Sequence record: PP892526.1
DNA from: Escherichia phage vB_EcoM_I14.1
Length of the DNA: 64,000 bases
Strand: one strand, 5' to 3'
The first letter of the stretch is position 1. Every line of letters starts with the position of its first letter. Positions 15,319 to 64,000 of this stretch are shown here, one piece after another. The notes beneath the pieces were generated by a model. It was not told the origin of the DNA and did not search any database. It worked only from the letters and a program-made list of their open reading frames with translations. The position numbers and the translations under genes were made by a program.

Positions 15319-16218
15319 TTATTTACCTACTGACAAAGGTGCTTCAATCTTTCCTGCATGTTGGTAGTTGTTAATTCCACCGATAAAGTCACTTGCAGTG
15401 AGATGTTTTAGGTCACTTAAAGTATTAAGTTGTAAACCAATCTCAAAAGTAGGTGCATGGAACTCTTCATTGTTCAGTAGTTCATAAACCTGTTTCATGT
15501 GGTTCTGATAAATCTGGGTATCTCCAAAGACACCTATCAAGTACCGTGGAGTGTATCCAGTCATCTTACAAAGAACTTCCAGAATAAAGCCATAAGATGC
15601 AATATTAAACGGAAGTCCTAAAAAGGTGTCTACAGAACGCTGATACCATTGTAAGTCAACTTCACCCTCGTTAGTGATATAAATCTGAAACAGAACATGA
15701 CAAGGTGCTAAAGCCATTGAGTTTGCTGCAATATCTGCTGCATTCCAAGCATTAACAAGCATGTAACGGTCTGTGATATCACCCTTCATCTTTGTTACTA
15801 AGGTCTCTAACTGGTCTACAACACAACCATTATGACCTTCAAAGTTTCTCCACTGAACCCCGTAGATTCTTCCACCTGCATCTTCTAACCAATCTTGTTC
15901 AGAAGAGTAATTAGAGCTTAACCAGCGTTTAAAATCATCTGACCAGATTGTCCAACGTTCTCCATCATTTTCACCCCAAGTACGGTAACGGAGTTCACCC
16001 AACTTATTCTCACCATTCAGGAACCATAAAGCTTCCCCAATAACTTGCCGTGTGAACACCTGTTTAGATGTTAAGAGCGGGAAACCAGTTCGCATATCAA
16101 AACGAAACTGAGGTGGAGCAAAAGCAGAGATAACATCTCCAGTTCGTGTGGTACGCAGTTCACCAACGGATAAAACATGGTTCAGGATATTTTTGTAACT
16201 TGAATCTGCTTGTGACAT
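15319..16218 (-). CDS. thyA: thymidylate synthase (ThyA family)
   Basis: Motifs TTRTGD, FPLLTSK, IYGVQWR, catalytic APCHVLFQ, QRSVDTFLGLPFNIASY, GDTQIYQNH. Confidence 0.85.
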   Translation of the reverse strand: MSQADSSYKNILNHVLSVGELRTTRTGDVISAFAPPQFRFDMRTGFPLLTSKQVFTRQVIGEALWFLNGENKLGELRYRTWGENDGERWTIWSDDFKRWLSSNYSSEQDWLEDAGGRIYGVQWRNFEGHNGCVVDQLETLVTKMKGDITDRYMLVNAWNAADIAANSMALAPCHVLFQIYITNEGEVDLQWYQRSVDTFLGLPFNIASYGFILEVLCKMTGYTPRYLIGVFGDTQIYQNHMKQVYELLNNEEFHAPTFEIGLQLNTLSDLKHLTASDFIGGINNYQHAGKIEAPLSVGK

Positions 16219-16219
16219 A

Positions 16220-16765
16220 TCAAAGGTGTCCTTTTACTTGTGGTGTATAGATATCAAAAGTTGCTTTTCCATCTGCTGATGGTCTTGACTGAATCTTAGC
16301 AAAAATTTTACGGTCATGCAACTTGTCAAAGAAGTTCTCAAAAGGTAGATACACAGTTGCCTCTTCAGTCACTTCATGGAAAACTGTATGAAACACTACA
16401 TCAGCATACGGTAAAGCACTGACAAGGATACCTGCACCACCAATTACGAAAACATCTTCTTCAATATTACTGTCAAGATACTTTAAAAATGCTCCAAAAG
16501 AGTCTTGATGAGATTTAGCAAACATAACGTCATCTTTACTAAAATCTATACCGTAATAAGGCACAGAGTTTGTTAAGATAAGGTTTTCACGTTCAGGTAA
16601 AGGATTACTTCCCAGAGTCTTGAAAGTCTCGTTACCCATTACTACTAAGTTGTCTTTAGTGAGTCTCTTAAACTCTTGCATATCCTCTTTATGTCGAGGC
16701 CACGGCATACCAGTTGGAGTACCAAACTCACCATTTCCACCACTTGCAAAGATTAATTTAATCAT
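16220..16765 (-). CDS. frd: dihydrofolate reductase
   Basis: DHFR signatures: GMPWPRHKEDMQEF, VVMGNETFKTLG, VFVIGGAGI; co-located with thyA. Confidence 0.8.
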   Translation of the reverse strand: MIKLIFASGGNGEFGTPTGMPWPRHKEDMQEFKRLTKDNLVVMGNETFKTLGSNPLPERENLILTNSVPYYGIDFSKDDVMFAKSHQDSFGAFLKYLDSNIEEDVFVIGGAGILVSALPYADVVFHTVFHEVTEEATVYLPFENFFDKLHDRKIFAKIQSRPSADGKATFDIYTPQVKGHL

Positions 16766-17022
16766 TTTGTAAATCCTTTCTTAATGAACCAGTTGATAAC
16801 AGTCTTCACAGCTTTATTGCTATGGTAGATTAAGTGCGGTGTAGGTTGGTATGAACCATAAGCCCAGAAAGCAATAATTTCACTACACCCTGTACATCTT
16901 GTACTCTCTTCAGCAATATGACCGTTGACTATTTCACTTACCTCGCCTTGTAAGTCTGTACATCCACAATGTGGACAACGAATAGGTGCTCCGTCAGACT
17001 CATAGCAGTGTTCAATTTTCAT
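16762..17022 (-). CDS. zinc-ribbon protein
   Basis: CPHCGC ... CTGC cysteine pairs. Confidence 0.35.
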   Translation of the reverse strand: MKIEHCYESDGAPIRCPHCGCTDLQGEVSEIVNGHIAEESTRCTGCSEIIAFWAYGSYQPTPHLIYHSNKAVKTVINWFIKKGFTK

Positions 17023-61685: not shown

Positions 61686-61780
61686 TTGCAATCAACTATC
61701 AAAACAAGTAAATTACTAATCAACGGGAGGGATAACCCCCCCCCCACTAAATAAAGTCCTTAAACTAGGAGATTCAAAAA
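61686..61780 (+). promoter_or_regulatory. early promoter plus leader containing a C10 homopolymer
   Basis: TTGCAA-N17-TAAATT; leader gggagggataacccccccccc with C-run at 61736-61745. Confidence 0.5.
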
Positions 61781-62706: not shown

Positions 62707-62955
62707 ATGGCAACTATCCGCGCAACTGTCAATGCTTATGGCTGTTATACTCTGGACGTTAAATTTGATATTGGTGGAACTGATGAGTGTTTTTCATTAG
62801 TGAAGACAGTTATCAAGCAAGTTATCCCAGATTATAACCCTACTGATGACTTCTGGAAAGATGCTGTAAAAGAGGCATTAAACGACGAGCATCACTATCA
62901 TTACTGGGGTGACTTGATTATCTCACTGTACTACAATAAACAAGGTTACAACTAA
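62707..62955 (+). CDS. early small protein, hypothetical
   Basis: Leader cassette upstream; last ORF before strong terminator. Confidence 0.45.
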   Translation: MATIRATVNAYGCYTLDVKFDIGGTDECFSLVKTVIKQVIPDYNPTDDFWKDAVKEALNDEHHYHYWGDLIISLYYNKQGYN

Positions 62956-62961
62956 TCGCCG

Positions 62962-63017
62962 CAACGGGGCTAAATAGCCCCAGATACCTTCACAGCCCCA
63001 TTTAAGGGGCTTTTTTA
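62962..63017 (+). terminator. tandem hairpins with T-run; strong intrinsic terminator closing the early array
   Basis: ggggct-aaat-agcccc, then agcccc-attta-aggggct followed by TTTTTT. Confidence 0.65.
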
Positions 63018-63019
63018 CG

Positions 63020-64000
63020 TCTATGTAATAGCCTCTATACAATCCCTTTCCTTTCCTTTCCAGAATCTTACTAGACCTTAAAAGCAATAACTCTATAGTC
63101 TACTCTATAATCTCTTATCAAATCAACTTAAATAAAAGCCCATAACCCGAAAGGGAAGGGTAACCGTTTAAACGCTCTATAAAGCTCTATAACAGCCTTA
63201 TCAACCTAACTTAAGGGATTGCATTAACTCACCCTAAAAAGCCCTTTATAAAGCTTCCTAGAGCCTTAAAAGAATCTTATAAGGGTGTAAGCTTTATTAT
63301 CTCGTTAGTTCCTTGTGAATAACTAGAAAGGGCTTGTTAGTGTCTTAAAAGTATGTTATAGGGGCTATAAAGTTACTTCAAAGTTACGTAAAAGTGGTTT
63401 AAAAGTTACGTAAATGCTAGCCCCCTTAACATTTTCTTAACAATTTCTTAACAACCCCTACATAGTTATGCTTGTTAGCAACTTGTTAGCCCCTTGTTAA
63501 ATCTCTGTTAAAACCACGTAAAAGCCTTGTAAGAGTCTTTAGCATAGCCTTTAAAGCCCCTGTAAAGCCCTATAAATAGCTTTCTGTATAGTTGGGGTGT
63601 AATTACTAGGGAGAGACTAAAAAGAGCTTATAAGGAGCTATAGAAAGCTTTTAAGAGGGCTATTTAAAAGGTCACTAAGAAAGGAAAGGGAACGATAAGA
63701 AAAGAGATAGTGACCATGTTAATAGCTTGTTAAAAAGATTAAACACTTGTTAGGAACTTGTTAATTATCTTAACAAAATAACTCTTTAAAATTAACTTGT
63801 TAGCTCTTGTTAGTCATCTGTTAAGATTCTATAAAGACCATGTAGCAACTGTTAAGAAACTGTTACACCCTTGTTAGTTCTGTTAAGAATCTGTTAAGAC
63901 CTCTGAAGAGATGTTAAGAGGTTGTAAGAACTGTTAAGAGATTGTTAAGGATATTTTAAAATTCTGCAAAGGGGATGTTACAGGGATGTTAAGGGCTACC
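63020..64000. repeat. ORF-free, repeat-dense non-coding region (ctctata, acgtaaa and TGTTA word families)
   Basis: No ORF of 60 aa or more on either strand; ctctata x5, aaagttacgtaaa x2, 21 copies of TGTTA. Confidence 0.6.
63850..63995. repeat. helically phased TGTTA(A/G) iteron array
   Basis: TGTTA starts at 63850, 63861, 63872, 63881, 63892, 63912, 63932, 63943, 63976, 63987 (spacings 11, 11, 9, 11, 20, 20, 11, 33, 11), plus a tgtaag variant at 63923. Confidence 0.6.

Follow-up and report, generated by a model that had tools for sequence, protein, structure and literature searches.

The right end of the genome of Escherichia phage vB_EcoM_I14.1 carries a dense, helically phased array of short TGTTA units that fills the last 150 bp of a direct terminal repeat (DTR), the last unit ending 9 nt before the right terminus. 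The array lies at the end of the stretch analysed here, 64,000 nt of sequence record PP892526.1, which we refer to as the window. We hold with moderate confidence that the array acts as a protein-binding platform on one face of the DNA, which would belong to the packaging machinery and position terminase cleavage at the DTR boundary. Terminal repeats are already known in this phage group. For a TGTTA array we found no description in the papers on Felix O1, wV8 and UAB_Phi87, in genome announcements or in annotations, and the lattice inside the DTR is apparently undescribed.

The terminal repeat and its surroundings

Judging by its sequence the window phage is a Felixounavirus (Felix O1-type). 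Over its last 1101 bases the window is 100% identical to the end of Escherichia phage vB_EcoM_D4 (PP886228.1, 89,439 bp), and identities of 76–95% were obtained with about 250 further Felix O1-type phages. Identity to D4 extends over the last 2263 bases of the window, and the window and the D4 record end at the same base. The initial annotation of this DNA had suspected a genome end or an origin and had suggested a comparison with the other end of the genome. In this comparison window positions 63420–64000 proved identical to bases 1–581 of the D4 record. On the basis of this identity we regard 63420–64000 as the right-end copy of a 581-bp non-coding DTR, with 63420 corresponding to the left genome end and 64000 to the physical right end. 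The suspected genome end was thus located correctly, with the array inside the DTR.

Several independent sources agree with this assignment. The depositors of vB_EcoM_D4 reported a DTR from PhageTerm, and a 613-bp repeat has been published from PhageTerm for Ro111lw. The DTR boundaries are the same to the base in four independent records (D4, Ro111lw, SPJ41 and NBEco005), whose exact terminal repeats measure 581, 613, 613 and 651 bp, respectively. The ends of UAB_Phi87 have been mapped by time-limited Bal31 digestion and run-off sequencing, giving a DTR of 608 bp; the distance between the conserved boundary sequences is 614 bp in this phage, within 6 bp of the mapped value. Short terminal repeats were also inferred in the Felix O1 paper.

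In all four records the left boundary reads ...GTAAATGCTA|GCCCCCTTAACA... and the right boundary ...GTTAAGGGCTACC|AAGCAGATATACATC.... The left boundary with its cleavage context occupies 63410–63432 of the window, the cut falling between 63419 and 63420. It is kept in 12 Ounavirinae, and in Erwinia phage M7, which has a DTR of 444 bp, the boundaries are found within 2 nt of the homologous positions. At the right end the genome closes with the terminal sequence TGTTAAGGGCTACC (63987–64000, + strand), which is invariant in 12 phages and in UAB_Phi87 and is followed by AAGCAGATATACATC in the concatemer. The sequence AGATATACA is found once in the genome, immediately outside the right boundary. 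Read 5’ to 3’ toward each end, the termini are TGTTAAGGGCTACC| on the right and TGTTAAGGGGGC| on the left, so that TGTTAAGGG is read toward the end at both termini.

The DTR is part of a non-coding terminal region of ~1.7 kb, the largest non-coding stretch of the genome, which separates two converging operons that both end in a terminator. On the left side the rightward operon of small early genes (+ strand) ends at 62955. It is followed by a rho-independent terminator at 62994–63011 (element 62994–63020, + strand), which was detected in a terminator scan, has an annotated homologue in AYO145A and marks the left limit of the terminal region. The description of the array as adjoining a group of early genes is borne out by these positions. 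The flanking genes are small hypothetical ORFs, lysis or tail genes. Within the DTR no ORF of more than 26 aa is present on either strand, and TGTTAA/G at 11-bp spacing places stop codons in all + strand frames. A search against Rfam gave no family match in the DTR, its sole match being the terminator hairpin (E=0.71). A coding or RNA element was rejected on these grounds. Likewise, a cluster of promoters is not convincing: we counted 8 weak sigma-70-like matches against 3.5 expected, none of them persuasive, and such weak matches arise mostly because TTAACA resembles the -35 hexamer TTGACA.

Two points of annotation and assembly were noticed in the same part of the genome. On the - strand at 62923–63087 the D4 record annotates a 54-aa product, CDS0149, which overlaps both the terminator and the final part of the last early gene and is probably a spurious gene call. 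In addition, the D4 record contains at ~87100–87177 a direct duplication of 76 bp, flanked by C8 runs, of which the window has a single copy (~61737–61744). This difference would reflect either a near-identical isolate or a homopolymer artefact in one of the assemblies.

Phasing and conservation of the TGTTA units

An exact word search located ten TGTTA units on the + strand between 63850 and 63995, starting at 63850, 63861, 63872, 63881, 63892, 63912, 63932, 63943, 63976 and 63987. The start-to-start spacings are 11, 11, 9, 11, 20, 20, 11, 33 and 11 bp, a variant TGTAAG lies inside the array at 63923, and 21 copies of TGTTA occur across 63470–64000. Every copy number, position and spacing given in the initial annotation was reproduced. 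Its motif TGTTA(A/G) is slightly too narrow, two units being TGTTAC. For none of the ten array units is there a copy on the - strand.

A shuffled-sequence control of copy number places the array far above chance: in 2000 dinucleotide-preserving shuffles of the 146-bp array the mean was 0.47 TGTTA with a maximum of 3, compared to ten observed. Shuffling of the whole 581-bp DTR gave 1.5 copies on average and at most 7, compared to 21 observed. Outside the array region the densest 146-bp stretch of the window holds 3 copies, and in the rebuilt whole genome at least 5 TGTTA per 146 bp are reached only in the two DTR copies.

The best period of the ten array starts is 10.4–10.5 bp (Rayleigh R=0.86, p about 0.001). 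As null model we used random positions subjected to the same period scan (9–12.5 bp), in which the value of the array was reached in 0.14% of trials. When all 21 copies of the DTR are considered, R is 0.715 at 10.2 bp, a value reached in 0 of 5000 trials. The helical phasing that had been claimed from the spacings therefore stands, and it is helical and not merely an 11-bp tandem repetition. The 20- and 33-bp gaps contain units with one mismatch that fall on the lattice, TGTAA at 63923 and TTTTA at 63954. Because the wide gaps carry such units, the array (63850–63991, + strand) can be described as a lattice of ~13 helical turns in which most positions are filled.

The curvature prediction proposed at the outset gave nothing special: the array lies at the 80th–89th percentile of the genome, and static bending was rejected as an explanation of the array. 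This prediction used a wedge model with Bolshoy-Trifonov parameters, and we give its result little weight.

Further units are distributed over the remainder of the DTR. At its left edge three inverted units (CTTAACA on the + strand; 63425–63454, - strand) have their TGTTA at 63427, 63438 and 63449, again with 11-bp spacing. The first of them starts 8 nt from the left terminus, all three point toward this terminus, and together with 63923–63959 they form an imperfect inverted repeat. On the + strand there follow four CTTGTTA(G/A) units at an exact spacing of 11 bp (63471–63510; 63473, 63484, 63495 and 63506), two TGTTA pairs that are conserved in the alignment (63717/63728 and 63748/63759, within 63717–63763) and three units identified by word search and alignment (63798, 63808 and 63819, within 63798–63823). 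In the right two-thirds of the DTR every unit is located on the + strand and aimed at the right terminus. Beyond the DTR additional TGTTA are found at positions 736–957 of the D4 record.

We aligned the DTR and its flanks from 12 phages of the genera Felixounavirus, Mooglevirus and Suspvirus and counted identity relative to D4. Within the array the positions of the TGTTA cores are 99.1% conserved compared to 82.9% for the bases between cores (p=4e-8), and over the whole DTR the values are 97.0% for core and 84.0% for non-core positions (p=4e-13). Each phage contains 19–24 TGTTA, though overall identity drops to 76%. The irregular series of spacings is nearly invariant in the 12 phages, and each of them shows a best period of 10.4 bp (R about 0.9). 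The DTR varies in length through indels of 11, 22, 23 and 49 bp. These are confined to the part left of the array, and in all 12 phages the final 150 bp are free of indels. Measured from the start of the last unit, the right end is likewise at a constant distance of 14 nt, in UAB_Phi87 as well as in the 12 phages of the alignment.

The strongest evidence is provided by the Erwinia phages Prophecy and M7 (Kolesnikvirus). Only ~86 bp of them can be aligned to this DTR, and yet they show TGTTA spacings of 11, 11, 9, 20, 20, 20, 11 and 22 bp in the right third of their DTR. Since the Erwinia phages keep both the word and its geometry despite so little alignable sequence, we conclude from these comparisons that both are under selection across the subfamily. 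Phages that infect Escherichia, Salmonella, Shigella, Citrobacter and Erwinia have all retained the motif.

A possible role in packaging and its alternatives

The phasing together with the conservation suggests that a protein binds the array cooperatively along one face of the DNA. Among the functions that the initial annotation had considered (packaging site, replication origin, partition centromere), a packaging site fits the anatomy best, because units are found right at both cleavage positions, their orientation is reversed at the opposite edge and the distance to the cut is fixed; of an origin, a DnaA-box cluster and long iterons were looked for and are lacking, as discussed below. As at terminase sites, the units adjoin the position of cleavage (9 nt on the right, 8 nt on the left), and phages whose terminases are related have conserved the repeated elements. 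For small terminases, which recognise viral DNA, a wrapping model has been formulated in which the DNA may be wound around the ring (PMC7617512).

In the mechanism that we propose a DNA-binding component of the terminase machinery would recognise the TGTTA units. Because they recur every helical turn, the units would all be presented on one side of the DNA, where the bound proteins might assemble head to tail over the ~13 turns or, alternatively, the DNA might be wrapped around an oligomer. Held at a fixed distance from ...TGTTAAGGGCTACC|AAGCAGATATACA, the complex would position the nuclease of the large terminase there, and the three units of opposite orientation could have the same role at the left boundary TA|GCCCCCTTAACA. 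A replicating concatemer would contain one DTR per junction, and cuts at the two boundaries combined with copying of the intervening 581 bp would provide both genome ends with a full repeat. This duplication step is modelled on the established maturation of T7. A role in placing the cuts cannot apply to every unit, however, since many stand hundreds of bases from either cut, namely those at 63473–63823 and those beyond the DTR. As no small terminase was found next to TerL and binding is what we infer, we do not claim that the array is a member of the class of terminase recognition sites.

The closest analogue in genome biology is the junction of T7 and T3. As in the phage studied here, a short exact DTR is generated from concatemers, and non-coding arrays of short direct repeats lie by the repeat boundary. 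Using Tandem Repeats Finder we found the CCTAAAG-type array of T7 (SRL/SRR) again at 174–340; it is unannotated in the RefSeq record. The T7 units have a period of 13 bp, out of helical phase, and are mostly located just outside the 160-bp repeat, whereas in the present phage the period is 10.4–10.5 bp and the array is inside the 581-bp repeat, up to the terminus. In addition T7 possesses a known small terminase, gp18, while none is recognisable next to TerL here.

In its design the array also resembles the packaging sites of P1, SPP1 and lambda. The pac site of P1 is a complex site with seven hexanucleotide repeats (PMC11260489). Several short repeats around the region of terminase cleavage are common to pac and the DTR, but P1 packages by a headful mechanism from pac and has permuted ends and no exact DTR. 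The pac hexamers, TGATCA/G, carry Dam sites that regulate cutting, whereas TGTTA is devoid of GATC and is present in 21 copies compared to 7 in pac. At SPP1 pacL/pacR and at lambda cosB repeated boxes or R elements are likewise situated beside the nicking site, and an oligomer of the small terminase binds them cooperatively, bending or wrapping the DNA. These sites comprise 2–4 boxes with a known binder and serve headful packaging or cohesive ends. The array described here is in contrast much longer, unidirectional, present at both genome ends and without a known binder.

Other functions have to be weighed against a role in packaging. A replication origin is in our estimation unlikely. In this reading an initiator of the phage or the host would recognise the phased units in the manner of iterons and melt nearby AT-rich DNA such as GATATTTTAAAATT (63950–63963), and the array would stand in the DTR either by coincidence or as a link between initiation and the genome ends. 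Direct repeats at whole helical turns, on one face of non-coding DNA, are typical of iteron origins; the setting in the largest non-coding stretch between converging operons would suit an origin, AT-rich segments within and beside the array are conserved, and we found no mapped origin in the papers on Felix O1-type phages that we consulted. However, iterons are usually 17–22 bp long and have an initiator gene as well as DnaA boxes and an AT-rich unwinding element next to them, whereas the conserved core here comprises only 5–8 bp at a spacing of 9–11 bp and is locked to the genome terminus. A cluster of DnaA boxes is absent and the DTR contains none, the one relaxed match nearby (63314–63322) being outside of it; in the whole window relaxed DnaA boxes number 4 compared to a chance mean of 11.9. 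An origin would moreover leave the fixed distance of 14 nt to the terminus, the inverted units and the shared TGTTAAGGG ends unexplained. For a partition centromere there is nothing in favour in a lytic phage, as which vB_EcoM_D4 is described by its depositors, and none of the flanking genes suggests a par gene.

It is quite improbable, in our view, that the array is instead bound by a host protein for a purpose other than packaging, for example by a winged-helix response regulator or a nucleoid protein acting in protection of the ends, in control of ejection or circularisation, or in transcriptional insulation. The PhoB box (CTGTCAT-N4-CTGTCAT) and OmpR half-sites of the GTTACA type are head-to-tail repeats of 10–11 bp, and CTGTTAAGAATCTGTTAAGA presumably resembles the pho box in layout. 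The motif is kept across Enterobacterales phages as for a common factor, no phage-encoded binder was found among the proteins upstream of TerL, and viral contigs, among them some without relation to this phage, contain triples of TGTTAAG at 11-bp spacing ~5x more often than two control words. Yet the array departs from the PhoB and OmpR consensus sequences at key bases, the region between the two terminators offers no gene to regulate, the promoter-like matches are weak, and the tight tie to the cleavage positions would have no explanation. We consider it very improbable that the repeats merely aid pairing of the terminal repeats and their recombination into concatemers, or that they are by-products of replication slippage under weak constraint. 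Phages with a DTR do make concatemers via their repeats, as established for T7, and DTR lengths that vary in steps of 11, 22 and 23 bp indicate that slippage or unequal pairing does occur here. Nevertheless, products of slippage would decay or vary, whereas the cores are 99% conserved, the last 150 bp lack indels in 12 phages, and the irregular series 11, 11, 9, 11, 20, 20, 11 is preserved even in the Erwinia phages. For an aid to pairing, internal repeats would even be a cost, favouring pairing out of register. The probabilities that we assign to a packaging platform, an origin, a host-protein site and a pairing aid or slippage product add up to less than one, the remainder being reserved for functions outside these four.

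Terminase genes, similar arrays and neighbouring repeats

To our knowledge no small terminase has been assigned in Felix O1-type phages. The region upstream of TerL (15615–16946 of the D4 record, corresponding to L020:7616–8947) encodes a 244-aa protein, a tRNA-Cys gene and a 66-aa protein, and neither of the two proteins matches a small-terminase family in PHROGs or Pfam. The 66-aa protein (phrog_4397) was rejected as a small terminase: it is acidic, is predicted to form a two-helix hairpin, has no match to a terminase family and has near-identical homologues only. The 244-aa protein was also rejected, belonging to DUF7217 and showing helical matches of tape-measure and apolipoprotein-like type. 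Among 60 sampled related records, 0 carry an annotated small terminase upstream of TerL. A bolder proposal, which we regard as doubtful, is that Ounavirinae lack a canonical small terminase and that the phased TGTTA(A/G) lattice together with the inverted units forms a loading track for an undescribed recognition protein that measures both cuts at the DTR boundaries. The TGTTAAG arrays in unrelated uncultured viral contigs would then mean that such a protein-DNA module, or a shared host factor, is widespread.

We also scanned IMG/VR for exact occurrences of TGTTAAG-N4-TGTTAAG-N4-TGTTA and obtained 107 viral stretches, of which only 21 show a relationship to this phage. For two control words of matched composition and equal spacing the numbers were 17 and 20. 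The loci with TGTTAAG arrays (L026–L132) include L126:6769, L084:8614–8706, L052:5710–5769, L039:596 and L082. For the array-bearing contigs without a relationship to this phage, no related phage was found in GenBank. In one uncultured contig of 81 kb perfect tandem arrays of CTTGTTAAGAA are present at several separate places.

Felix O1-type phages are classic typing and biocontrol phages of Salmonella and E. coli, and Bas63 is an emerging genetic model. An array of 150 bp by the cut site that is conserved throughout the subfamily offers a ready bait for pull-down of its binder as well as a target for engineering of packaging signals, be it for transducing particles or for rebooting of synthetic genomes, in which case both DTR copies with their arrays must stay intact. 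The locus also accounts for the breaks and the collapse of assemblies of these phages at this place. Repeated recognition elements at phage genome ends are a well-established idea and the conceptual advance is modest; a modest surprise is the strictness with which the geometry of the array is kept.

Just outside the left DTR boundary Tandem Repeats Finder detected 4.2 copies of a tandem 11-bp unit, AAAGTTACGTA, at 63369–63414 (+ strand), whose flank TTACGTAAATGCTA is kept in 12 phages. More generally, the unique DNA that flanks the DTR on either side (63010–63419 of the window and 582–1032 of the D4 record) is made up of families of 10–12-bp repeats. These comprise CTCTATAA, CTTATAAGG, the four copies of AAAGTTACGTA, two copies of CTTGTTAGAGGG and, on the far side, three copies of TACTATATAG, and they recall the arrays of T7 beside its terminal repeat.

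Within the DTR a partly palindromic insert of 22 bp, AATTGGTATTGTTACCAATCCC, was found at two different sites (homologous to ~63771 and ~63797) in different phages when Ro111lw, Silverhawkium, SUSP2 and NBEco005 were compared. NBEco005 additionally carries a 49-bp insert with the ends ATTGGTA...TACCAAT, and a 23-bp insert, GTTGTGTTTGTAAACAACCACT, is present in SPJ41, NBEco005 and ESh21. These inserts could be small mobile or slippage-derived units. Most of them have lengths near whole numbers of helical turns. At the left edge of the DTR a few Danish records tag a 30-bp ‘repeat_region’.
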